64,000 nt of DNA from Gemmatimonadota bacterium (GTDB lineage Bacteria > JBHIER01 > G020348925). Position numbers and translations under genes: made by a program. The DNA is taken from NCBI GenBank assembly GCA_020348925.1, contig CP070758.1, forward strand, positions 1,506,469 through 1,570,468, in the 5' to 3' direction. The notes below the pieces were generated by a model. That model made no database searches. It saw only the letters and a program-made list of their open reading frames with translations, and had not been told where the DNA came from. Shown here in pieces: positions 3,327 to 43,640 of this stretch (its first letter is position 1; the number at the start of each line of letters is the position of its first letter).

Positions 3327-6300
3327 CTATCTCATCAACACCATCCGCCTCGTCTGGGTGAAATCATTCGCCCGGATCCTGTAGAAGTAGACGCCGCTGG
3401 CCGCCTGCTCACCGTCCCACCGAACTCTGTGGTAGCCCGCCTCCATATCGTCGTTCACCAGCTCGGTCACCACCTGTCCCAGTATATTATAAACCGTTAC
3501 GTTCACCCTGGCATCCTCGGGCAGACCGAATTCAATACTCGTCACAGGATTGAAAGGATTGGGATAGTTCTGCGCCAGACTGTACTCCAGCGGTATGAGA
3601 TCTCCCACCTTGACCACAAACAGTCGCCCGTGCCCGAAGCTGATCCGCTCGTCCACCGTGAAAACCACCGGCTCCACCACCTCCACCTCGATCTCATCCC
3701 CCACCTCCCCCATCACCTCGAACAAAACACGCACCACCGGCCCACTGCCGGCCTCTATCACCCCACCGCTCAGACTCGACACAAAGACCACCAGCTCTTC
3801 ACCAACCACCTGAGACATGACATCCATCCCCGCCGAACGCTCCGTCACCTCAGGCGCACCCGCCTCCAGAACATCCCCATCATACCGGAACCGCAGCAAC
3901 ACTCCGGCCACGTCCTGCTCCGAGGTCACATCCACAGGCACCGCCACCGTCCGACCCGACACCCCCACCGCATCACCCACAGCCACCTCGGCCACGACCA
4001 CCTTCGGATCGCACACGCCCACCGCCCGGTTGATGCACTTCATCAGATCGATAATATTCACCAGCGTGTCCCCGTTGGCATCGGACGCCCACAACTGCGT
4101 CCCGGGTGAGGTTACCGGTCCGGTCAACGGCGGCTCCTGCCTGCCGACCATGTGATTCAACACGGCAAACAGATCCAGCAACGTCACCATCGTGTCCGCC
4201 ACTCCAAATTGGCCTGTCACGTCGCACTTGCCCGGCACCAGGTACCCCCCAAAACAGATCTGACCCTTGTCCTCCAGCTTCAAACACAGCGGCTCCTTCG
4301 GCTCCGGAGGATCACCCCAGTCATCCAGACCGTCCAGGATCACGTCCGAATACACGATATCGGCACAACTGCCGGCAGGCGCACCGGGCAGCACTTCAAA
4401 CAACACCCGCAAGATCGACAAGTTGCCCTCATGCGCATATCCCGGCGGCAACTCACAGAACCCCTCACCGGCCGGCAACACTTCGATCTGAGGATGCTCA
4501 GGCGTCGAAAACAGCGCAATCTCAACCAGCCCCCCTCCAGGATGCGACAGCCAGACCAGCTCGAACCCTTCGCTCCGCGCCGTCTTGACCACCTCCACAA
4601 CCTGTAAATACTGCGCATCATAGGCCAAATCGATCTGCACCGCCGAAACCGGATACTCGTTGTCCAGCATCAGCCCGACAGTCACCGTATCCCCAGGCAC
4701 CACCGTCGGGTCCTCACCACCGCAGTTGGAATGCTTGTAGGCCACCTTCACACCCGAGGTGTCCCGCATACACATACCGGTAAAGGGCATGAACTTGATA
4801 TCCGCCACAGCCGTATCCTGAGAACAATACCCCTTGGCCGCATGCACCACCACATGCGCCGGCAGTTCCACCGGCGGCCCGGATCCCCTCGGGATGATCG
4901 TCAACAGCGCCTGACCCCGACCCCCGGGCTCCAGACACAAAACCGTCTCGCTGAAATAATAATCCCACAACGGCGGGATGTCACCCGCCTCTATCCACAG
5001 GCTGATGCAATCGTAATAGGGCTCCTCGTTGGACACCGGCAACGGTACGACGACCGACGCCCACGTCGCCTCCGCACTCACCCAGCGGTGCCTCGACCAC
5101 ATCCACCGCTCGCAATCCCGCAGATACCCCGTCGTCGAATCCTCGACCGTCCAGATCCACTCCCCGGGACCATCGCCAGGCGTCAGACAATGATCCCGCA
5201 GCACAGGGTAGTCGACGACGATGTTCCGCGCATACTGCTGATAGGTACTACTAATGATAGCCTCGTACTCATAAAACGGCGTCTTCCCATGATACGGCGC
5301 TACCACCTGAATCCCCGAACCCCCGATGCCCCCCCACAAAACCGTATCATAGACCGCCTCGACCGGCATGAAAAACCCCCACGGCGCCAACCCGAAACTG
5401 ATCTTCGGATAGGCGCTGTTGGATCCCTCATTGACCACCGTGGCCCACACATCGTAGGGCACATTCTCACACGGGTAGCGCGGACTCCAGCGGATATCCT
5501 CCGCATGCACCGGCTGCACCCGACGCCCATCCGGCCCCAAGTAGAGATGCTCGGGGTAGGGCATAAACTCCAGCTCCACCTCTCCCCACTCGCCGCTGCA
5601 CTTAAAACCCCTCACCTTTAAAAGAACAGGCCCCTCCGGCTCCGGTCCATCCGGCCAGACCGTCACATAGACGCTATCCCTGTCCCCCGGAGTTCCGAAG
5701 GGCTGCAGAACCAGAAGCGTCTCATTCAAGATAACCTCCCACTCCTCCGGGACACCCTCCAAGGACAGTTCAATCGCCATCGGAACCGATGCATCGTTCC
5801 ACACCGGGATAACGATGGGCTTCAATCCCCATCGGACGGGTTCCGTGCTCCACGGATCTTCCGGCCAGATCGTCATCCGGCATCGACGGGCAAAATTCAG
5901 GGTATCATCGAGGCAAAAAGCTCCATCCACATCCCATTGTTTCGCCAGCCAGGTCACAACAATATTCCGCGCCCACCAGTTCTCGCCGTCCGGATGATGG
6001 TGGTACTCGCACTCGCAGGTCAGGGTGTCCGTGGCACCGCCCGGGACCATTACAGGGCCTACGGTACAATGAGGCCGTATGCCTATGGGCGGAACCGTGA
6101 ACAGACCCCACGGCGCCTCAAAAAAGCTGGCCGACAGAGGTGCAGCCTCCTCGCACTCGTTCCGGAAGACCGCCTTGACCGTGTAATCATCGCAGACGCA
6201 CGGATACTGATCGCGGTAGGGATGGGTCCACGTAATGGTCGGCTTGGGCGTCTCGAGACATCCGGGGTTGTAATCGAGACAGACACGCACCATGTATTCG

Positions 6301-8749
6301 TATCCCGGAAAACACTTCCACTGGTTCAATTCGGCATTCCAAATCCAGGAGTAGGTCGTATCATGGCCGGCATCGCCCAGAATCCTGGGCCTGCCCGGCT
6401 GAGGCCCCCTCTGCTGCCAGACAATGTAAAAACAACGCTTGGGTGGGATGATGATGCAACTGTCGCGCACCACCACCTTTTCCCAATTCCAGTTCCCGAT
6501 AAAGCCGACACCCTCTATGAAATCCAAAGGCGGCGACTCCAACATGGATACATCTGGCGGCAGAGGCTCACAGGGCTCGCACGGCGACACCAATCCCACA
6601 TAGACCCACATATTGATGAGCCCCATGTCAAACCACTGAAAGGAGATGGTATCAAGCCTGGCCTCACCGCAGGGATTGTAAAAACCGATGGCGTACAGAT
6701 CCGATCCGGGCGTCGGCCCCACGAGATAATCGTCCGCCTGCTCGTCAAGATCGTTGTCCCAGCAGCAGTGGCCCCAGCACTCGGGGTAACACGGCCCGCG
6801 GCGGCCGTCGAAGCCCTCGACACCACGCTCCACATGAAGCGGGATATTGTTGTTGATGATCCAAGGATCGCCCGGCTCGAGATCGAAGGTCAGGTAAAAG
6901 TCCGTACAGGCGTCCGACGTGAGAAAGCCTGTGCTGCCGTTCTCACCGGCACCCAGCACTGTCGGATCAGGACCGCCCGTCGGATCGAAGGGCGGCGGAT
7001 TCTGCCGCAGGCAGGTGCTGCTCAAGGAGGTGTTTGGCGGCAGGGTCAGGATCAGGGTATATACTCCGGCTGTGCCATCGGTCAGAAATCGATAGTAGCC
7101 CGAGGATCCATCGTCGAAGATCGTAATCGCACCCGGACCGCTGACCGACACGTTCCCGCCGGGGATAATCTCACCCGTCTCCTCGTCGTAGTAGTAACCA
7201 GTGGGATCGTAGTCGAGATGGTTGGGAATACCGTCCCCGTCTCGATCAGTAATTCCTTCAAGGATATCCGGCATGCCGTCCCCGTCCGAATCCCCGCACG
7301 GCGGGTCCAGGGTGGCACAGGTCTGATACGGTGCAAAACGAGCCCACGATGGGCAGTCCTCCCAGTAGACGTTGTCCTCACAATAACTGTCGTGATCGTC
7401 GCAGCAGGCCCCATAGAGCCACGGCTCGCTGCAGATAACAAAGGCCATATCCAGAGGCTCACCCGTCTCAGGATCGAGGAGGCGCATATCCTCCTGACTC
7501 GTTGATAAAATCTTGTCCTTAAATGGCCCTTTTCGAGATGAAGTGGGAGTTTCTAAATTCAAATAAAAAATAACCCACAGTGCAGCGTCATTGAAATGGC
7601 TCTTCGATGTCTTCCAACCCCACGCCGGCAAAGATGGTCCGCCGTTATCACCCGTCTCGACAGCTGCAGCGATCATGAGCCAGTAAATGGTCCCTTCTTC
7701 CTGAATAAAGAATCCATTCCCAAATCCGTTGTCAATTGGGAAAAAAACGTCCGACATATCCAGTGTATACTGAAAATATCTCTGATGATCCGTCGGGAAA
7801 ACTGAGCCCTCTCCAGGAATAAAAAATCCCTCCCACTCGGATGTTTCTATCGGATAAGAATCCCAACCCTCACAGATACCATACCACAGCAAATCTCCCC
7901 ACATACTGTAGCCGGTCGGGCTTTCGTGGGCAGGGATGTCACTTAGAATACCTACCAGAAAACCGTGAATTTCGTCCTCAACATCCTCCAACCACGAACC
8001 CCAGAGTTGAATTTCGGTCACCGGGCCGGTCTCCGTGCACAGCCAATCATCGACCGCAGCTACGCCACTCCATTGTCCTAACTCAAAAATTAAAGTTGAT
8101 GAGAAAACATCCCAGCCGGACTCGTCCGGAAATTGGGGGTAATGCATCTTTGGATAGCACTCGCAGGCATCGTCAGGACCATTCCCGTTCAGATCCCCAA
8201 GACACGTGCTGCCCGGTCCCAGGGGAACGCCCCCGATGGCCAGACATTCCTCGTAGAGCAACTCCTGGCACAATCCCTCTTCCATGCAGCAGGCCACGGT
8301 CGAGGGAAACTCACAGGCATCGTCTGAGCCGTTGAAATCATTGTCCCCAAGACAGACGCTGCCCGGACCCTGGGGTACACCGCCGTTGTCAATACAGGTA
8401 CGCACACCCAGATCGAAACAGCCGCCATCGGAGAAGCAGCAGGCCTCCACGGCCCCAAGGACACAGTTGCAGCAGATGTCCACTGTCCCGTCCCCATTGA
8501 CGGTCACATCCCGCTCGCAGATCTCATCCGGCGGACATCCACCGGAGCAGCCAACAAAATGCAGCACACCGGTGGCCATCCGAATGGTGGCCGTCGTCGT
8601 GCCGGCTAAACCATCCAGAACACTGCCAGGACAGCCTTCAAACTCGATCTGATAGGTGATATCGAAGAAGCTGTCGATATGATACAACCCGCCGCCAAGA
8701 TCTGTTATGGTCGTCTGGCCCGGACTCGGCAGACCTAAATCTGTACCAC
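3327..8749 (-). CDS. 3' part of a giant secreted protein: Cys-rich ACC repeats, KMHxPQ/WGSW domain, TSP3-like Asp repeats, duplicated Ig/CARDB-like units, cohesin-dockerin-cohesin, T9SS/FlgD-type CTD; 5' end lost in the gap
   Basis: ORF 3327..8951 with the across-gap N-terminus removed. CTD: EYSLAQNYPNPFNPVTSIEFGLP...YNILGQVV...SGVYFYRI. Dockerin-like: CDVTG...DTMVTLLDL / SDANGDTLVNIIDL. Cohesin-like: GDTVTVGLMLDN...VSAVQIDLAYD and GRTVAVPVDV...VAGVLLRFRYD. Confidence 0.85.
8626..8749. repeat. 124-bp direct repeat, copy 2, abutting the N gap
   Basis: Identical to 1-124. Confidence 0.95.
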
Positions 8750-8849
8750 NNNNNNNNNNNNNNNNNNNNNNNNNNNNNNNNNNNNNNNNNNNNNNNNNNN
8801 NNNNNNNNNNNNNNNNNNNNNNNNNNNNNNNNNNNNNNNNNNNNNNNNN
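8750..8849. other. Assembly gap (100 N)
   Basis: Run of n. Confidence 1.
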
Positions 8850-9366
8850 TGACAACAGTGCTGTCACCATGTTGGACATCCCAGGCCTGAGGTGCTTGTA
8901 TTTGAATGAGATGTTGTTGGTAATCGAACAACGAGTCATTGGGGATTTCATTCATAGTAGGCGCACAAACAGGTTCCGCATATTCCACGCTCGGATCCTT
9001 GGCAAATTCACGAGCCACAGTGACAGGGTCGAAATCTGTGGAAAAAGAGAGAGAATATATTCTCGATATATCCGGTAATCCGGAACCTTTGGGTATAGGT
9101 TTGTGCTTGAACCGTTTTCTCACCTTCTGCACGGAGAAACGGCTTAATTTTTCATCGAAAGAAGAAATTCCCGTCACCTTTAGATGCTTCATACCCTTGG
9201 CTATAATATTGGGTTTAAACTTCACCACAATCTTTCCTGGCTCGTAAAGAGGTGCTGTTCTTTTTTCAGGAAATCGATGTCCCGAAATTTCTTTGCCTGG
9301 TGCTCGAACAACAATGATTACAAGAACACACAGTGCGGCGACAACACATTTCATACTTTGTCCCAT
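8850..9366 (-). CDS. S8 subtilisin-like peptidase: signal, prodomain and start of the catalytic domain; truncated by the gap
   Basis: AGGAGG RBS; signal peptide; YEPGKIVVKFK prodomain start; DPSVEYAEP...PNDSLFDYQQHL..IQAPQAWDVQHGDSTVV, typical of the region just before the subtilase catalytic Asp. Confidence 0.8.
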
Positions 9367-9456
9367 TGGTTTCCTCCTGTGAGTATTGAATGAAATGAAT
9401 CTTCTAAGGCACAATAGGGTAATATATTATAAAAACAAAGATGAAAAAGGCGGTGC

Positions 9457-10173
9457 TCATGGTTCCTTCCATTTTTCTAAGAACACAAAATGGGAAAGAG
9501 GCTTACGGACAGGAGGAAGAGGTTCATGAGCCGGATAGCCAATGGCAATGATCGCCATAAGTTGGACATCTTGTGGTATCTCAAGTAGGGTCTTAATTTT
9601 CTCTTCAACAATGAGCGGCCCTCCCATCCAGAGAGATCCCAAGTCCAGAGCTGTCGCGGCTAAGAGAATGTTTTGGCATGCAGCAGAGACACCCTGGATG
9701 TTGTGTAAATTTTCGATATTTTCCCACCCTTTGTCCATATCGATATGGCGGATATCACAAAAAACAAAGATATGCACAGGAGCTGAAAACACACTGGACC
9801 AATATGAATTCATTCTTTCTGAGGGAATCCCTTTCGTCTCATAGAACCCTTTCAACGTGTCCATCAGCACTTCTCGGATATCGTTTTTCGTTTCTCTATT
9901 TCGAACAATCACAAACTTCCATGGCTGGTCATTGTTGGCCGAGGGAGCCCATGAGGCTGCTTTTAGGAGTATCTCAATCATTCCTGGATCGACATCTTTT
10001 TCTTGGAATTTTCGAATGCTTCTACGTTCTTTGATCGCTTTCAAGATCGGATTCGTTTCGAATGGTGAACTTTCAAACAGTTCCGTTCCCTCAGAATACA
10101 GAGCTCTATTGAATATGAACATCAGAGCGAATGAGAAGACAATCACAATCAGAAAGAATCTATGCATCCTCAT
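9457..10173 (-). CDS. Nitroreductase family protein with an N-terminal signal-like extension
   Basis: IKERRSIRKF, AASWAPSANNDQPWKF, QNILLAATALDLGSLW and IAIGYP motifs; hydrophobic N-terminus. Confidence 0.9.
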   Translation of the reverse strand: MRMHRFFLIVIVFSFALMFIFNRALYSEGTELFESSPFETNPILKAIKERRSIRKFQEKDVDPGMIEILLKAASWAPSANNDQPWKFVIVRNRETKNDIREVLMDTLKGFYETKGIPSERMNSYWSSVFSAPVHIFVFCDIRHIDMDKGWENIENLHNIQGVSAACQNILLAATALDLGSLWMGGPLIVEEKIKTLLEIPQDVQLMAIIAIGYPAHEPLPPVRKPLSHFVFLEKWKEP

Positions 10174-10215: not shown

Positions 10216-12726
10216 TTATTTCATGATGAGACATTTTCTTGTTTGAGAACAATCGCTCGTTTTCAATTTGTAGAAATAAATTCCTGAGGCGAGTGAGTTG
10301 CCGGCATTATCCAATGCGTCCCAAGTGACCCTGTAATGTCCTGCTGCGTTGGTATCATTCACTAATGTTGCCACTTCTCGCCCCAGGATATTGAATACAC
10401 AGAGTTTCACCACACTCTCATGAGGCAGAGCGTACTCGATAATTGTCCGAGCGTTAAAAGGATTGGGATAATTCTGAGTCAGGATGAACTCTTTGGGAAT
10501 ATATATTTCTTTGACAAGAGTCATCAGCATTTTAAAATCTTCTTTTGAAAAATGGGATTCCAGAGATTGGAAATATTTGAAGACTTTGGACGAGATTTTA
10601 ACTGTTTCAGCCGATGTACATGAACCAATCCCGAGAACGACGTTCACAATACCTATTGCATCGATAATATCTACGGCTCCGTCCCCGGTGCAGTCGGCCG
10701 CCCATTCTTGAGATTCCGTTGGCTCTGTGGACCCCAGTATGATGTTTACAACAGCAAGCACATCCAGAATGTCTAAACTCCCATCCTGATTCACATCTCC
10801 CTTGAAGGGGACGTAGTTGAACCATTGTACAATGTTGTTTAATAGCGCTCCACGGATTTCATCATCGTCTCCAGTTGTAGCCCGAATGCCTTCGAGTCCG
10901 AGGGCGAAATAGACCAGTTTGTAATCACCATCGTATTTGATGGCTGCAACTTCTTGAGAAGAGTAATAATGAAGGATGGAGCTTGCCCCTTCACGAGGAG
11001 TGATAACACTTGGAGAAGTTTGATTCACATCTATTGTGAACAAGTTGAAATCGCCGGTGATGGGATCCCCATCCACCGCGGTTAGGAATGTCTCCTCTAT
11101 TGTATCATTTACGTAATCAGCGTGAAGATAATTTGCATAAAAGAGTGCATCATCCAGCGAGCCATTTTCCACTAAATCATAACCTATGTTTTGGCCAAAG
11201 AGGATAAGACAACCCCCTCTCTCAAGATAGCTGGCAATGAGTGTTTGTTCATTCGGAGTAAGAGTGCTGTCCCGGTCATCACCTGTAGACCAGATCATTG
11301 TTTCATACCCCGACACGTCAAAGCAGAAACAGTCTTTGGACTGCGTATCCACATAACGGTACACGTTTCCTCCGGCATACAAACACGCATCGTAATATTC
11401 TTCTGAAGAGGAGCCGCCATCGTCGTCGACTAACAGAAGAAATGGATGTCCTGTCTGAAAATTGAATGTTAACGTGTCCGCATAATCACTTTCTTCCGAT
11501 ACGTAGACATAGGCCGTCGCCCAATGAGACAAGAAGTCTGGATAGGCAATCAGGCGAAAGGGCGTGTTTGTGTTTCCGGTTGGGTGAAAAGGTTCAATTT
11601 CTTCATATACAGAATGTCCGTCTTGCACAATAATATGTTCATCCTCAACGTACAATTCTGCTCTGATGTCGGTCGCGGCATACCCGATATTTTCGAGAAG
11701 CACGATGAGATTTGCGGATTCACCAGGAGTGAGAACCCCGTCCTTATTTCCCTCGCTGTCGTCAATAGTATATCCTGAGGTGTGGAGCAGTGGTCTTAAA
11801 AAATCGCTGACTTCTTCGTTTGCAGTCAAATACGGCAGCCCCCCTTCCGCCAACGGTACGGACCCTGTTATGGCGTATAACTTATCTTCCACTACTTCAG
11901 CTGTTAATCCTTCACGACGTGTCGGCATGGGTGCCCAGTGTGTCCATCGATCATGCACCGGATCATACGATTCGAATTCGTTCGAATTTCCACCACGTCC
12001 TCCAACCACGTAAATTCTGCCGTGGACGACTCCGATTCCGCTTCCTCCTCTCGGTGTTGGCATAGGGCTTTTTGCAGTCCATGTTTTGGAAAAGCTATCA
12101 TACTCCTGGACTAGGTTAGAACTCCATCCTCCAATCAAATACACTTTGCCGTTAGCGTGAGCAGTCATAAACGTAGATCGTGCTTGAGGCATAGTCACGT
12201 CTGCTTTCCAAGAATCGCCAGCGGGATAATATTTTTCCACAACATTTTCTTCCGCTTGAACTCCCAGTCCACCAAATACGAAAATAGTATCGTTGATGGC
12301 TACTCCTCCTGCCCAACCTCGAGGTGTCGGCATTGAAGTTTTTGACGTCCAACGATCGCTCTGGGGATCGTATTCCTCCACGTCGTCCAGGGCATAGTGG
12401 CCACCGGCAAAGGAACCACCACGTCCACCGATGGCATAGATTTTATCGTTCACGACTTCTGTTACCAAGCCCCACCGTGGCGTCAACATAGGAGCCTTCA
12501 TTTCCCACGTGTCAGTTTCAGGATCGTACATTTCAACCGTGGGTAGAGCTCCATATGGATTAATACCCCTCTGACCACCTATGACGTATATCTTTCCGTT
12601 CAAGACGACGGAGGCTGGATTCCAACGCTCTGTGAGTATTGGCGCTCTCGGTGTCCACGTTTGAGATAAACCAACGGTATAAAAACTCACGAATATGAGA
12701 GTTATCATGAGACTCTCCTTTTTCAT
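10216..12726 (-). CDS. Secreted Kelch-repeat protein with dockerin and T9SS-type CTD
   Basis: Six Kelch blades (KIYVIGG, MPTPR); dockerin KGDVNQDGSLDILD...ADCTGDGAVDIID; CTD LTQNYPNPFN...SGIYFYKL. Confidence 0.9.
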   Translation of the reverse strand: MKKESLMITLIFVSFYTVGLSQTWTPRAPILTERWNPASVVLNGKIYVIGGQRGINPYGALPTVEMYDPETDTWEMKAPMLTPRWGLVTEVVNDKIYAIGGRGGSFAGGHYALDDVEEYDPQSDRWTSKTSMPTPRGWAGGVAINDTIFVFGGLGVQAEENVVEKYYPAGDSWKADVTMPQARSTFMTAHANGKVYLIGGWSSNLVQEYDSFSKTWTAKSPMPTPRGGSGIGVVHGRIYVVGGRGGNSNEFESYDPVHDRWTHWAPMPTRREGLTAEVVEDKLYAITGSVPLAEGGLPYLTANEEVSDFLRPLLHTSGYTIDDSEGNKDGVLTPGESANLIVLLENIGYAATDIRAELYVEDEHIIVQDGHSVYEEIEPFHPTGNTNTPFRLIAYPDFLSHWATAYVYVSEESDYADTLTFNFQTGHPFLLLVDDDGGSSSEEYYDACLYAGGNVYRYVDTQSKDCFCFDVSGYETMIWSTGDDRDSTLTPNEQTLIASYLERGGCLILFGQNIGYDLVENGSLDDALFYANYLHADYVNDTIEETFLTAVDGDPITGDFNLFTIDVNQTSPSVITPREGASSILHYYSSQEVAAIKYDGDYKLVYFALGLEGIRATTGDDDEIRGALLNNIVQWFNYVPFKGDVNQDGSLDILDVLAVVNIILGSTEPTESQEWAADCTGDGAVDIIDAIGIVNVVLGIGSCTSAETVKISSKVFKYFQSLESHFSKEDFKMLMTLVKEIYIPKEFILTQNYPNPFNARTIIEYALPHESVVKLCVFNILGREVATLVNDTNAAGHYRVTWDALDNAGNSLASGIYFYKLKTSDCSQTRKCLIMK

Positions 12727-12837: not shown

Positions 12838-12927
12838 TTACTTCAGAAGAACCATGCTCTTCGTGTGTGTGAAGTCTCGTGCTGTCAGTACTCAAACAAG
12901 AAACAAAATAACGTGTCCATTTTTCAT
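12838..12927 (-). pseudogene. Deletion remnant: signal-peptide start joined to a CTD-like C-terminal tail
   Basis: GGAGG RBS, then MKNGHVILFLV*VLTARDFTHTKSMVLLK*; the tail resembles the CTD ends ANDFTQTRRMVLMR and TSDCSQTRKCLIMK in this window. Confidence 0.6.
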
Positions 12928-12998: not shown

Positions 12999-14720
12999 TC
13001 AGGGAAGACATGTTCCAATTCCCAAGATCACGTTGACAATTCCAAGTGCGTCGAAAACATTCACCATTCCATCGTCGTTGCAATCGGCGGTCCAGGATTC
13101 CGTATCCGTCGGATCACTAATTCCTAAAATGATGTTTACTGTTTGGATCACGTCCAGTATATTGATTGCGTCATCACCGTTAACATCTCCCTTGGTCGGA
13201 ACATACCGCAGCCACTGGATGATCTTGTTCATAAAAATTCCTCGGAACTCATCATCATCCCCACTCATCGTCCGGATCCCTTCAAAGCCGAGAGCAAGAT
13301 AGACGACCTTATGGTTTCCTTCATATTTGATAGCGGCAGTCTCGCGGCACATGTGATAGACAAGTATTGGACTTGCTCCCTCCCGCGGAGTTATAACGCT
13401 GAGGGAGGATTGGTTTTCGTCGATTGGGAGAAAAGGGAAGTCAGCGGTGATGGGATCGCCCTGGATTCCACACAGAAATGATTCCTCAATCGAATCACTG
13501 ACATAGTCAGCATGGAGATAGTTGACGTGGAAGAGTGAATCATCCATTGAGCCATGTGTCACCAAATCAAAGCCTATGTTCTGGCCAGAAATGATGAGAT
13601 GACCTCCTCCGTCAAGGTATTCAGTCAAAAGATCTTGCTCCTTTGCAGTGAGGGTGCTGTCCTGTTCATCACCCGTAAACCAAATTAGGATTTCATATTC
13701 TGAAAGATCTAATGATTGAATATCTTGGGATCTCATGTCCCATTCGTGGTGCACTTTGTCTGCGTGGAACAAACATCTCTCGTAATATTGCTCGTAAGAC
13801 ATTCCACCATTATCATCAATCAAGAGTATGTCCGGATTCCCCACAGGCAAGCGAAAAGTAAAAGTATCTTTATGACTTGGCTCTGTGTCAATCACGAGTT
13901 CGAGTGAAGCATAATGAGGCCCGGAAGCAAGATCCAAACCGATGATGAAGGGATCATGAGAATTGTTGCCGCTTCCGTGACCGGGGATCGTATTAAAAAG
14001 AGTTTCATCTTTTTCTAAGATGATATGTGTGTCTTCACTCTCCAAGCTTCCTCGCAGATTACTCAAAGAGGGCTCGATGCAGGCGTTCTCTAATTCAACA
14101 AACAGATGTGCTGTTTCGCCACAGTTGAGTATAGCATCACTATTGCCTTGTGAGTCGTCGAGCATCACCTGGATCATTCGTATTTTTTTTGCCAAATACC
14201 TATCGATTTGACTTCGCATGTAGGATTCGTCGAATTGATCGGGGTAGAAAAACTTGAAATCCTGAAATTGCATAAAGCGATCAACAATAATAAAGACAGG
14301 CCATCCACCCCCAAACCGTTCACAGACGTGGCCGGTTGAGTCGTACACCACAGTATACGTAACGCCATGTCTGTTTACCCAATTCTGTACTGTTGACAAT
14401 TTTGCAGTCATGCCGATAGAGATGATTTGAAAATCCTGGTCTTTTAATTCTTGCCAGAGATTATTTTCGAGATGCGGAGCCTCCGCATTGCAGGTCGGTC
14501 ACCCTGAATGCCAAATATGGAGCAGGATAACATCGCCTGTGTAATCGTACAGAGAGATGCTATCACCGACTGCTGATGGCAGGGTAAAATTATCCACAAC
14601 ATCTCCAATTTCATAATCCTGCGCTGAAGATGATGAATGGTGTGTATCTGAAAAACTGACTCCGTAATAAAGGAGAAAGAGACTAACCAGGAATTTTGGA
14701 AGATGAGGATTTGTTATCAT
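12999..14720 (-). CDS. Secreted selenoprotein: AhpC/TSA (TlpA-like) thioredoxin fold with UxxC, accessory domains and C-terminal dockerin (about 573 aa; Sec at 14499-14501)
   Basis: ORFs 14499..14759 and 12999..14411 share a frame and are joined by one TGA: NFTLPSAVGDSISLYDYTGDVILLHIWHSG-U-PTCNAEAPHL. A SECIS-like hairpin follows. GGAG RBS before ATG 14720. Confidence 0.88.
14472..14488 (-). promoter_or_regulatory. Bacterial SECIS-like hairpin
   Basis: ATGCGGA-GGC-TCCGCAT starts 10 nt after the UGA; the apical loop begins with G, 17 nt from the UGA. Confidence 0.75.
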
Positions 14721-14759
14721 GTTTTGTCTCCGTTTTATTTTATCAAAGAATTGAAGCAT

Positions 14760-16229
14760 TCATGAGGTCCCTTTGATTTCAGAGAATCTTTGTTTCGTTT
14801 CCTCAACTTGTGGAATCCCTTCATCACAACCGTCCATAATCAGCAAGAATTTCTCCATTTCTGAAACGGCTTTTTGAATATGACCGAGTTCATCATAGAT
14901 GCGACCCAACAGATATCGGGAGTGCGAATAGTTGGGATTAATCGCTACGACCTTTTCCAATTCGGCGATCGCCTTATCCGTGTCGCGGCTTTTGAAAAGA
15001 GCTTCGGCGAAAGCAGTTCGAAAAAAGACCTCCTCTCGCGGCCAGAGCGGTTGAGCGAGAATATTTTGAAAGTGCTCAATCGCTTTGTCATGAGTCCCGT
15101 TCGCTGACGCGATCTTCGCGGACAAATGACCGACATACATCTTCATCCTCAGAGTATAGAGTTCCCCGTACCTCTCGTGAACATCTCGTTGTTCTTCCTG
15201 GAGTATGAGATGCTCCAACTGTTCCCTTTGTTCGACGGCTTTATGGACCACTCCCAATTCAGTGTAATTCAAACCCATGAGCCATTTCAGAATGTAGAGC
15301 TGGGGACCATCGGCCGGAATCTTTTCCAGGAGAGATAACGATTGCTCGTAGTCACCCCTTTCGTAATGGGTTCGTGCTATCTGTATCTGACTGCTGTTTC
15401 GAATCCATTGGTTTGTACTTGTCGCAGCTCCTTTCTCAAAGTAGCTGATGGCTTTTCTATACATACCTTTATATTGATACGCTCTCCCCAAGTGATCGAT
15501 GGCAAAGGCAAAGTCGGGCTTGAGGACCCGTGCTTTGTTAAATTCCGTGATCGCTTCATCATATCTTCCCATGATGAGATATATTTCTCCTAAACTATCA
15601 TGAGGATTGGGTTGATCGGGAGACAGAAAAACATACTTTTTCATATTGGCTATTGCCTTATCGTAATGACTAAGGTAGGCATATGCGTATCCGAGCTGGT
15701 TGTAGGCCGGAGCATAGTTGGGATCTATCTTAAGAATACGTTCGAATTCTATTATTCCTTTTTCATATTGTCTGAGTCTGAGATATTCGTTGCCTCGATA
15801 CTCATAGGGTTCTATGGCCTTCGAATAACGTTGGGCCAGTTTTTCGATCATCTCCCGAGCTGTCGTGTAATCGCGGTTTGTATGGGCATTGTGAAAGGAG
15901 ATGATGAGCTGCTCTTTTTCCGTAGTATTCGGAGCAAGTTCGACCGCCTTTGCGAGAGCCTCTCTTGCCTCTTCGATTCGACCGTAGTTACGGCAACTCA
16001 CGCCTAACCTGCAAAAGGCCATAGCAAACCCGGTATCCAGTTGTGTCGCCCGTTCAAAACAGGCGAGCGCCTCTTCAAAATAAAATTTGTTCGCCAGTTC
16101 TATCCCTTTCCGATACTTCATATATGCTTCTGCAGAATTGGTGGTGACTTCCCTCTTGTCTCGGAGACCGTAGGCCAGGGCAACAATGAGTGCTACAACA
16201 CATGCGACAATTGCTCCTTTCTTCATCAT
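14760..16229 (-). CDS. TPR-repeat protein with N-terminal membrane anchor or signal
   Basis: Many TPR units (DPNYAPAYNQLGYAY, PDQPNPHDSLGEIY); AGGAGG RBS before ATG 16229. Confidence 0.9.
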   Translation of the reverse strand: MMKKGAIVACVVALIVALAYGLRDKREVTTNSAEAYMKYRKGIELANKFYFEEALACFERATQLDTGFAMAFCRLGVSCRNYGRIEEAREALAKAVELAPNTTEKEQLIISFHNAHTNRDYTTAREMIEKLAQRYSKAIEPYEYRGNEYLRLRQYEKGIIEFERILKIDPNYAPAYNQLGYAYAYLSHYDKAIANMKKYVFLSPDQPNPHDSLGEIYLIMGRYDEAITEFNKARVLKPDFAFAIDHLGRAYQYKGMYRKAISYFEKGAATSTNQWIRNSSQIQIARTHYERGDYEQSLSLLEKIPADGPQLYILKWLMGLNYTELGVVHKAVEQREQLEHLILQEEQRDVHERYGELYTLRMKMYVGHLSAKIASANGTHDKAIEHFQNILAQPLWPREEVFFRTAFAEALFKSRDTDKAIAELEKVVAINPNYSHSRYLLGRIYDELGHIQKAVSEMEKFLLIMDGCDEGIPQVEETKQRFSEIKGTS

Positions 16230-38082: not shown

Positions 38083-38502
38083 ATGGAGTTCGAACCGAGA
38101 ATAATTGCCTTCGTGTGTAACTGGTGCACCTATGCTGCCGCCGATCTGGCCGGCACGTCGCGAATTCAATACCCGACCAACGTCCGCATCATCAGGTTGA
38201 TGTGCTCCGGTGCGGTCGATCCTGTCTACATCATGAAAGCCCTTCTGGAGGGTGCCGACGGCATCCTGGTGGGTGGGTGACACCCGGGGGATTGCCATTA
38301 CCAGTCTGGTAATTACAAGGCGCGACGGCGCATCGCCATCCTCAAGACGATTCTGGGGGATTTGGGTATTCCCGATAGTCGGGTTCGTCTCAAATGGATC
38401 AGCGCCAGCGAAGGCCGGGAGTTTGCGAATACGATCACGACCATGGTTGATGAGTTGAAGCAGTTGGGACCGAGTCCCTTCAAGACGATGTGGGAGATAT
38501 AA
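38083..38502 (+). CDS. mvhD: MvhD/FlxD [2Fe-2S] subunit, selenoprotein (Sec at 38278-38280)
   Basis: IIAFVCNWCTY...RLMCSG...[26 protein letters not shown]...WISASEG; the frame stays open to TAA 38502. Confidence 0.95.
38297..38313 (+). promoter_or_regulatory. Bacterial SECIS-like hairpin
   Basis: ATTACCA-GTC-TGGTAAT; the loop starts with G, 23 nt after the UGA. Confidence 0.75.
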
Positions 38503-43540: not shown

Positions 43541-43640
43541 NNNNNNNNNNNNNNNNNNNNNNNNNNNNNNNNNNNNNNNNNNNNNNNNNNNNNNNNNNNN
43601 NNNNNNNNNNNNNNNNNNNNNNNNNNNNNNNNNNNNNNNN
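43541..43640. other. Assembly gap (100 N)
   Basis: Run of n. Confidence 1.

Follow-up and report, generated by a model that had tools for sequence, protein, structure and literature searches.

A predicted exported selenoprotein joining a UxxC redoxin domain to a dockerin in a Gemmatimonadota bacterium

Gene organization

In this study, we analyzed a 64,000-nucleotide stretch of contig CP070758.1 (assembly GCA_020348925.1, positions 1,506,469 to 1,570,468 of the forward strand; hereafter the window) from a Gemmatimonadota bacterium. It contains a minus-strand gene that very probably encodes an exported selenocysteine (Sec, U) protein, in which a thioredoxin-fold redoxin domain with the active site U-P-T-C precedes a long C-terminal region ending in a dockerin (Table 1). 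One frame spans window positions 12999–14720, and its only internal in-frame stop is the TGA at 14499–14501. Translation with genetic code table 11 splits the gene into two open reading frames (ORFs) of the same frame, 14499..14759(-) and 12999..14411(-). Reading this TGA as U gives 586 residues from the ATG at 14759 down to the terminal TGA. The ATG at 14718–14720 is the probable start, because in the metagenome orthologue L054 a stop codon directly precedes the equivalent Met; the in-frame ATG further upstream, at 14759, probably does not serve as a start. Residue numbers below run from the upstream ATG (U87 and C90), and subtracting 13 gives the numbering from the probable start. The motif context is LLHIWHSG-U-PTC-NAEAPHLE.

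An earlier sequence-only reading of this DNA, which had placed the start at the same ATG, proposed that two ORF fragments form one frame broken by a single TGA at the first Cys of a TlpA/AhpC-type motif (IWHSG-U-PTC), followed by a 7-bp hairpin with a G-first loop resembling a selenocysteine insertion sequence (SECIS). It also held that the protein ends in a dockerin, that a Sec-type mvhD lies in the window and that gene callers would split such a gene. All of these points were borne out by the present analysis; the public entry for the gene, P0002, holds the 466-amino-acid C-terminal piece only.

Table 1 Features of the selenoprotein gene and its 3' flank (window coordinates).
Feature	Position	Strand	Basis or remark
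Complete selenoprotein coding sequence	12999..14720	-	573 residues from the probable start ATG 14718–14720, then stop TGA 12999–13001
Predicted Sec-type (export) signal peptide, MITNPHLPK-FLVSLFLLYYGVSF-S	14649..14720	-	Read by eye; cleavage position approximate
ResA/TlpA-like thioredoxin-fold redoxin, active site U-P-T-C	14190..14627	-	Pfam, phmmer, AlphaFold2 model, Foldseek
UGA codon read as selenocysteine (predicted)	14499..14501	-	Residue 74 from the probable start, 87 from the upstream ATG
Sequence around U, HIWHSG-U-PTCNAEAPHLENNLWQELK		-	Translation with TGA as U
TGC, resolving Cys of UxxC	14490..14492	-	Column at least 90% conserved in alignment A3
Bacterial SECIS hairpin, AUGCGGA-GGC-UCCGCAU	14472..14488	-	Inside the coding sequence, codons N-A-E-A-P-H
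Beta-sandwich (Ig-like), first half of the paralogous cassette	13842..14183	-	Residues 190–308; VIA Z 11–12, generic
GATase1-like/ThuA-like alpha/beta domain	13200..13841	-	Residues 307–520; VIA 3rht_A, Z 17.7, root-mean-square deviation 2.9 over 194
Type I dockerin, Ca-loop repeats DVNGDDAINILD and DCNDDGMVNVFD	13014..13199	-	Residues 521–582; Pfam and structure match
Decayed sorting-domain remnant (type IX secretion), …LTARDFTHTKSMVLLK*	12841..12888	-	Out of frame, about 110 nt past the gene end

Conservation of the UGA codon

Outside the window's own genome, a six-frame search of 41 genomes yielded 13 redoxin-part matches with exactly one TGA, all of which were fetched; a paralogue from the window's own genome and one further gene of genome G036 in a fetched locus were added. 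Alignment A3, made with MAFFT, contains 27 redoxin domains, 17 bearing a TGA and 10 being Cys forms. The TGA rows are the window gene, its own-genome paralogue, the orthologue L054, and sequences from G003, G007, G016, G023, and G036. The sole invariant column of A3 is the one under study: it holds the TGA in 17/17 TGA-bearing sequences and Cys in 10/10 Cys forms, and never Trp. The Cys three residues downstream is at least 90% conserved, with one exception, L044, which reads C-U-G-G-P. The active site of this gene (L044:978-3272, G023:C31) is G-D-C-U-G-G-P, with a Cys immediately before the Sec and none at +3.

The metagenome orthologue L054 is 68% identical over residues 6–251 and reads VWHSG-U-PTCNAEAPHLE; its TGA and hairpin are identical to those of the window gene. 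It was the only one of 41 metagenome stretches confirmed in a search for related loci, and none of 24 pattern matches in genome contigs was confirmed. Against L054, the 73 codons before the TGA have a dN/dS ratio of 0.17 and the 164 codons after it a ratio of 0.12; purifying selection thus acts at the protein level on both halves. Nucleotide identity is 26/45 just before the TGA, rises to 41/45 over the TGA and the following 42 nt, and then falls to 35/45, so that synonymous sites are frozen exactly at the RNA structure.

Searching with the A3 profile gave, with TGA-bearing matches in brackets, 12 (2) TlpA-like matches in the own genome, 18 (3) in G001, which is the only same-family genome among those compared, 10 (6) in G023, 16 (11) in G036, and 6 (1) in G003. 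In G036, locus L046 (G036:C1:108000-115500) carries tandem TlpA-like genes with an active-site TGA: four short secreted forms of about 180 amino acids and two long forms with LVIVD repeats, Ig-like domains, and type IX secretion system (T9SS) tails, with a Cys form on the opposite strand. The genome of the window has a second gene combining a Sec redoxin with a dockerin (L049:902-1630, equal to G000:C1:2672901-2673630, plus strand). Its product of 243 amino acids has a signal peptide, a G-U-G-F-C motif, and a dockerin straight after the redoxin without the intervening cassette, and the gene has its own covarying hairpin. A Cys-form TlpA-like gene lies downstream at 2673760–2674323.

The SECIS hairpin and the selenocysteine machinery

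The hairpin of the window gene has a 7-bp stem and a GGC loop starting with G, and begins 10 nt after the UGA. Folded alone it gives -8.3 kcal/mol, and 2/200 shuffles fold equally well; its 66-nt context has z = 0.07. For bacterial SECIS (bSECIS) elements, the legend to Fig. 2 of a 2026 review (PMC13188914) lists a loop of 3–9 nt, a stem of 4–16 bp, a G in the first two loop positions, a distance of 16–37 nt from the UGA, and a minimum free energy of at most -7.5 kcal/mol. The window hairpin falls inside every one of these limits (loop 3 nt, stem 7 bp, G first, spacing 17 nt, -8.3 kcal/mol). By comparison, no SECIS-like hairpin accompanies the terminal TGA of the gene (-3.5 kcal/mol, z -0.03). 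A scan of positions 14350–14600 against Rfam (E ≤10) returned no SECIS family, bacterial SECIS possibly being unmodelled there, and gave only a chance mir-287 match at E 1.1.

It is through the comparison of homologues, and only so, that the hairpin becomes strong evidence. A stem of 6–8 bp with a G at loop position 1 or 2 is present in 15/15 TGA rows, whereas the stems of six Cys forms are at best 3–6 bp. The stems vary yet pair (UUGCGGA/UCCGCAA, GGGCGGU/ACCGUCC, GGAAGGA/UCCUUCC, AGCCAGA/UCUGGCU, and CUGUGG/CCACAG). In an ungapped alignment of 16 sequences, 75.0% of the cells are paired, compared with 33.9–47.3% when the 3' partner is slid by 1–3 columns, and both-sided changes occur in six of the seven hairpin pairs. 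Covariation scores 0.532, a value that 0/500 shuffles reach; the mean of the shuffles is 0.198.

The genome encodes the machinery for selenocysteine insertion. The selA (598.8 bits), selB (396.5 bits), and selD (372 bits) genes are clustered at G000:C1:2516704-2521550, and a tRNA-Sec (65.8 bits, anticodon tca), also called tRNA-SeC by ARAGORN, lies at 405376; all four are above curated cut-offs. The selD gene itself contains one TGA, and like the window mvhD it carries a similar hairpin, with the loop GUU in selD and GUC in mvhD. The latter gene (window 38101–38469, plus strand) encodes an MvhD/FlpD homologue (180 bits to FlpD) with one TGA in the context GILVGG-U-HPGDCH and a 7-bp hairpin. 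Other mvhD copies are TGA-bearing at G000:C1:4137256-4137624 and stop-free at 3206190 and 3209769. TGA is also an ordinary stop in this genome, ending the window gene and 13/40 paralogues of its C-terminal cassette; therefore, a reassigned code would not explain the site.

We considered whether the TGA might stand in error, from sequencing or assembly, for TGC, TGT, or TGG, given that the source is a metagenome-type single contig and that contigs, rather than raw reads, were aligned to the site. Positions 14200–14800 are spanned by contigs from two sediment metagenomes (runs X1 and X2), and neither run differs in the codon or the hairpin. X2, a strain variant, has four differences elsewhere, of which three are synonymous by manual count. 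In run X3, the agreeing contig ends short of the TGA and the lone piece over the codon is unlike the window on both flanks; in run X4, the codon is not covered. The same codon is also present in the independent orthologue of 68% identity, which is one of 16 other homologues that have it in all. An error is thus extremely improbable. Short contigs of X1 and X3, from two studies, match the window only over the 34 nt of positions 14470–14503 (the UGA and hairpin), with three differences and unlike flanks; the same recoding cassette therefore probably occurs in other genes of those communities.

Alternatively, the TGA could be a true stop, whether a nonsense mutation or an ordinary terminator, so that the locus would be a pseudogene or two genes. 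This would agree with the two ORFs predicted under table 11 and with public calls that keep the C-terminal piece only. An inactivating TGA does occur elsewhere in this genome, at a conserved Trp position of a dockerin gene, and the window copy has also lost a C-terminal sorting domain (see below). Opposed to it are the placing of the TGA at the catalytic Cys column in all 17 TGA-bearing sequences of A3, drawn from several genomes, the covarying hairpin, and the complete Sec machinery. Moreover, the low dN/dS upstream would have to be maintained in a 73-residue half-domain without an active site. We consider a true stop very improbable. The UGA at 14499–14501 is very likely a conserved and selected Sec-recoding site.

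The redoxin domain

Ahead of the Y-x-[VI]-G-D motif that opens the domain, an n-h-c region was seen by eye in the protein and in all full-length homologues. The domain matches Pfam AhpC-TSA (2.1e-17, 63.6 bits; cut-off 26) and Redoxin (9.8e-15, 55.1 bits), and both matches run across the TGA. A phmmer search of the PDB retrieved, at E values from 5e-12 to 1e-9, chains of ResA, DsbE, and the thioredoxin family; the first Cys of their CxxC lines up with U. In the full-length AlphaFold2 model, the redoxin part has a predicted local distance difference test (pLDDT) value below 50, resulting from a poor alignment there, and a domain-only alignment was used instead. The domain-only model has a pLDDT of 91.7 and places U at model residue 46, just before helix 47–64 (alpha-1). 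The best Foldseek match is ResA (2h1b_A; template-modelling (TM) score 0.82/0.89, root-mean-square deviation 1.5 Å, 138 columns), followed by DsbE, CcmG, pneumococcal Etrx, and M. tuberculosis DsbE/DsbF. The W-P of GGGWPVF is aligned with the cis-Pro loop of the PDB relatives. The domain has the features of the ResA/TlpA/DsbE-type fold, namely a thioredoxin fold with extra N-terminal strands and a central insert, the motif at alpha-1, and the cis-Pro loop.

Curated NCBIfam models all score below their cut-offs (ResA 60.7 vs 170 bits, TlpA 29 vs 230, and DsbE 23.2 vs 123). The redoxin domain is a relative of ResA, TlpA, and DsbE and an equivalog of none of them. It is not a member of the WAxxUGC selenoprotein family NF041054 either (22.9 bits vs a cut-off of 300).

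Peroxiredoxins have their peroxidatic residue in the motif PxxxTxxC(U), with Thr at -3, and Sec is a good peroxidatic residue. A peroxiredoxin-type thiol (selenol) peroxidase detoxifying peroxides outside the cytoplasm would be compatible with AhpC/TSA as the best Pfam family, with weak NCBIfam matches to thiol peroxidase and PrxQ, and with Bcp-type peroxiredoxins among the fold matches (TM 0.76–0.81). However, the window protein does not have the peroxiredoxin motif, since I-W-H-S-G-U has His, not Thr, at -3, and ResA/TlpA chains rank above Bcp by both sequence and fold. Its UxxC also differs from TxxU, the form given for Sec-containing peroxiredoxin in a table of the selenoproteome reviews (PMC13188914/PMC9312934). 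We judge a peroxidase improbable.

Tables in the same reviews (PMC13188914, PMC9312934) list, among computationally predicted selenoprotein families, a peroxiredoxin (Prx)-like thiol:disulfide oxidoreductase (PF00578, UxxC/UxxU; exemplar WP_010940744.1), crediting their reference 12. With its PF00578 score of 63.6 bits against 26 and U-P-T-C as UxxC, the redoxin head is a member of this known family, and the novelty lies in the domain combination. The sequence-only reading had called the architecture one not known to be described. We likewise found in the literature no selenoprotein joined to a dockerin or to type IX secretion, in a search that did not extend to supplements and subscription journals; the UxxC redoxin family, in contrast, already stands in the reviews.

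The C-terminal cassette

Residues 190–586 of the full-length model mostly have a pLDDT above 90. While the sequence-only reading was right about the two ends of the protein, redoxin and dockerin, it left undescribed the 330-residue stretch between them, which is made up of a beta-sandwich and a GATase1-like domain. The latter also resembles GH42 trimerisation domains (VIA, Z 16–17.5), and Foldseek gave the same families. Class I glutamine amidotransferases carry their nucleophile Cys at the elbow that follows the central strand, in a triad completed by His/Glu. In the paralogues, the consensus is SGQNIG, with no conserved Cys where, by our reading, this elbow would lie. For this reason, we take the GATase1-like domain to be probably non-catalytic. 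The dockerin matches Dockerin_1 (PF00404; 1.6e-7, 31.8 bits vs a cut-off of 22.9), and superposes on 2ccl_B (VIA) with Z 11.8 and a root-mean-square deviation of 1.1 over 62/62 residues at 31% identity.

The cassette (residues ~190–586) occurs at 40 loci in the 5.04-Mb genome, of which 25 are dockerin-ended, 14 end in a T9SS sorting domain, and one is unclear. The loci include 2576004–2610868, 4665916–4681644, and window 10216–12726, and 11 copies form a tandem array at 2.576–2.611 Mb. Proteins of this family consist of a variable head, the beta-sandwich, the GATase1-like module, which has no Pfam family, and a dockerin with or without a T9SS sorting domain. Heads in database relatives include DUF362, Kelch, beta-helix, M1/M6/M28/S8/C25 peptidase, beta-lactamase-like, and GH130 domains.

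The active site lies outside all 47 database hits. The entries for the orthologues P0003, P0004, and P0005 (65–66% identical) each start within the redoxin domain, directly behind the U position, which is what gene calls likewise cut at a TGA would produce. In P0003 and P0005, a T9SS sorting domain follows the dockerin, and the G003 homologue has the order redoxin, cassette, and sorting domain, without a dockerin. The window gene ends seven residues past the dockerin. Beyond its end, tblastn with the C-termini of P0003 and P0005 (700-nt search space) detected the remnant listed in Table 1, which is identical to the last 16 residues of P0003 at 11 positions (E 0.001) and is followed by a stop. 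In our reading, a deletion took away the sorting domain and left the protein in the dockerin-terminal type, which is the majority in this genome.

Genome context and location of the protein

Cohesin matches in the genome number at least 81 and dockerin matches at least 148, the latter from the scoring of 150 among 527 candidates; hundreds of T9SS-type C-terminal domains are also present (247 tblastn high-scoring segment pairs). Four kb downstream of the selenoprotein gene, a 1874-residue ORF (3327–8951) encodes a DUF7901 domain, a cohesin, and a T9SS sorting domain (Pfam). A second, weaker cohesin match was found in it by the genome scan, and a dockerin-like stretch between the cohesins was seen by eye. 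The adjoining gene (10216–12726) encodes a Kelch head, the cassette, a dockerin, and a T9SS sorting domain. A predicted complex of the dockerin (residues 515–586) with the nearest cohesin (P0049 1645–1785) scored 0.10 (mark 0.32) and counts neither way.

We infer that the protein is located at the cell surface and tethered to a cohesin. It is possible, though we think it unlikely, that Sec is inserted and the protein acts instead in the periplasm as a ResA/CcmG-like reductase fed by CcdA, in cytochrome c maturation or envelope repair, with the dockerin used for some assembly in the periplasm or elsewhere instead of for surface display. Among solved structures, its nearest relatives in both sequence and fold are indeed of the ResA, DsbE/CcmG, and TlpA type, the genome encodes two DsbD_TM/CcdA proteins, and the window copy has no T9SS sorting domain, so no known route over the outer membrane is visible. 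On the other hand, the sorting domains in P0003, P0005, and the G003 homologue point to an ancestral surface or extracellular destination, and the score to the NCBIfam ResA model (60.7 bits) is far below its cut-off of 170. The genome has a classical pair of CcdA and Cys-form TlpA elsewhere, and the cassette is shared with peptidase and glycosidase heads typical of secreted enzymes.

Several further observations concern the neighborhood. A nitroreductase-family protein (window 9457–10173, minus strand; Pfam 7.6e-35) with an N-terminal hydrophobic segment is encoded between the Kelch–dockerin gene and the giant cohesin-bearing gene, and may be exported or membrane-anchored. Runs of 100 N occur at window 8750–8849 and 43541–43640. 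The former lies in the overlap of ORFs 3327–8951 and 8638–9414 and enters both translations, so that the boundaries of these ORFs are uncertain; ORF 8638–9414 looks by eye like the start of a subtilase propeptide. A dockerin with a TGA at G000:C1:4080164-4080334 (plus strand) was rejected as a selenoprotein, as its TGA is at a conserved Trp between the repeats (…DSAAQ*RADCNADG…) and looks like a nonsense mutation or an error. Synteny involving the tetratricopeptide repeat (TPR) gene upstream, suggested by a similar C-terminal peptide, was also rejected, because the ORF upstream of L054 encodes an unrelated coiled-coil protein of 86 amino acids. The TPR_CcmH_CycH match of the TPR protein is weak, one of 31 generic TPR matches, and was given no weight.

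Discussion

The analysis describes one exported Sec-containing thiol-disulfide enzyme with a dockerin anchor, which has been mis-split in databases, and we hold this description as a whole to be highly probable. Several points weigh against it. Sec insertion itself is a prediction from the features above. The homologues were picked for carrying a TGA, so that what is tested is where the TGA falls and not how frequent it is; they are mutually related, and their counts are not independent. Seven more TGA-bearing TlpA-like matches from the A3 profile search are left out of the count. Runs X1 and X2 belong to a single study, and the assembly itself may derive from X1. Among 19,943 random TGAs of the genome, a stem of at least 6 bp occurs in the same interval in 22% and one of at least 7 bp in 8.8%, and 9.0% have a stem of at least 6 bp with a G in the first two loop positions; taken singly, the hairpin of the window gene is weak evidence and not statistically remarkable. 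For the six genes from G036, the tested register does not always contain the hairpin, which lowered the pairing figures. No match to a T9SS sorting domain (PF18962/TIGR04183) was found in the window protein, although its orthologues keep one, and some decay of the gene is conceivable. Finally, no reductant is evident: the CcdA gene of the genome adjoins a Cys-form TlpA-like gene (3581273–3582476) and neither of the two Sec forms.

Compared with the Prx-like selenoprotein family, the window protein has in common AhpC-TSA and Redoxin scores above the Pfam cut-offs, Sec as the first residue of UxxC, and a bSECIS in the coding region. That family is defined by the redoxin alone, and, in a comparison made with its description rather than the exemplar sequence, the window protein adds a signal peptide and the cassette of ~390 residues. 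It shares with ResA, TlpA, and CcmG (DsbE) (PDB 1st9, 2h1b, 4nmu, 3gl3, and 2b1k) the fold (TM 0.82–0.89), the motif at alpha-1, the cis-Pro loop, and a putative export signal judged by eye. It differs from them in having Sec for the first Cys, with Gly rather than Trp before it (HSG-U vs W-C), in lacking a membrane anchor and neighboring CcdA or cytochrome-maturation genes, and in its extra C-terminal modules. The WAxxUGC selenoprotein (NF041054) also combines a TlpA-like fold with Sec in the redox motif, but the motif and register differ (UGC vs U-P-T-C). The pneumococcal Etrx lipoproteins (4hqz and 2yp6) and M. tuberculosis DsbE/MPT53 and DsbF (1lu4 and 3ios), which are among the matches, are likewise extracytoplasmic thioredoxin-fold oxidoreductases; they are Cys-based, lipid-anchored or free, and without dockerin or T9SS modules.

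Cellulosomal enzymes with type I dockerins, such as C. thermocellum Xyn10B (2ccl_B), have the same C-terminal duplicated Ca-loop/helix module, and the window's genome also encodes many cohesins. In the present case, however, the cargo is a predicted redox selenoenzyme instead of a glycoside hydrolase, the host has T9SS sorting domains and looks diderm, and the cohesin partner is only putative. Exported selenoproteins have a precedent in SaoB and SaoC of the SAO system (bioRxiv 10.1101/2022.07.06.499078), which are described with signal peptides, exposure outside the cytoplasm, and truncation in databases. As described there, they differ in their substrate-binding folds, CU motifs, Firmicutes hosts, and absence of a dockerin or T9SS module. 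In the two selenoproteome reviews (PMC13188914 and PMC9312934), the string 'secret' does not occur, nor does 'periplasm' in PMC13188914.

We propose a pathway for the synthesis and action of the protein based on these features. SelB and Sec-tRNA(Sec), recruited by the coding-region hairpin, would read the UGA at 14499–14501 as Sec, and the putative N-terminal signal peptide, judged by eye, would carry the protein over the inner membrane. Thioredoxin-fold CxxC enzymes use the first residue of the motif as their exposed nucleophile. Sec would occupy this attacking position at the N-terminus of helix alpha-1 and carry out thiol-disulfide exchange by analogy with the ResA/TlpA family: the selenolate would attack a substrate disulfide or another oxidised sulfur species, C90 would resolve the mixed Se-S bond, and a donor would re-reduce the enzyme. 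The remainder of the protein (beta-sandwich, GATase1-like domain, and dockerin) may be a delivery cassette, the same on about 40 different heads. Its dockerin would dock into one of the at least 81 cohesins of the genome, at least one of which is on a T9SS-sorted protein 4 kb away. The ancestral T9SS sorting domain was presumably lost, leaving the window copy dockerin-ended like most of its paralogues.

Tentatively, and with considerable doubt, we suggest that this protein and its relatives are Sec disulfide reductases or isomerases displayed outside the cell, held by a dockerin and/or a T9SS sorting domain in a large non-cellulosomal cohesin–dockerin assembly. Such an enzyme would work beside peptidase and glycosidase heads on the same cassette and open disulfides of extracellular protein or organic-sulfur substrates in anoxic sediment, and would be recharged by ambient sulfide or thiols and not by a cellular electron chain. 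Dockerin-ended copies might cross the outer membrane on cohesin-bearing T9SS cargo.

The gene, its orthologues, and many relatives seem to be stored as N-terminally truncated 'hypothetical' or 'dockerin' proteins, and a whole class of exported selenoenzymes may escape routine annotation. The small redoxin domain and its confident model should make the benefit of Sec over Cys in a TlpA-type enzyme testable with U/C variants. Selenocysteine is costly to make. Its use on a display-tagged protein suggests a need for fast, overoxidation-resistant thiol-disulfide chemistry outside the cytoplasm in sediment bacteria, and would link selenium use to a very large cohesin–dockerin/T9SS secretome.

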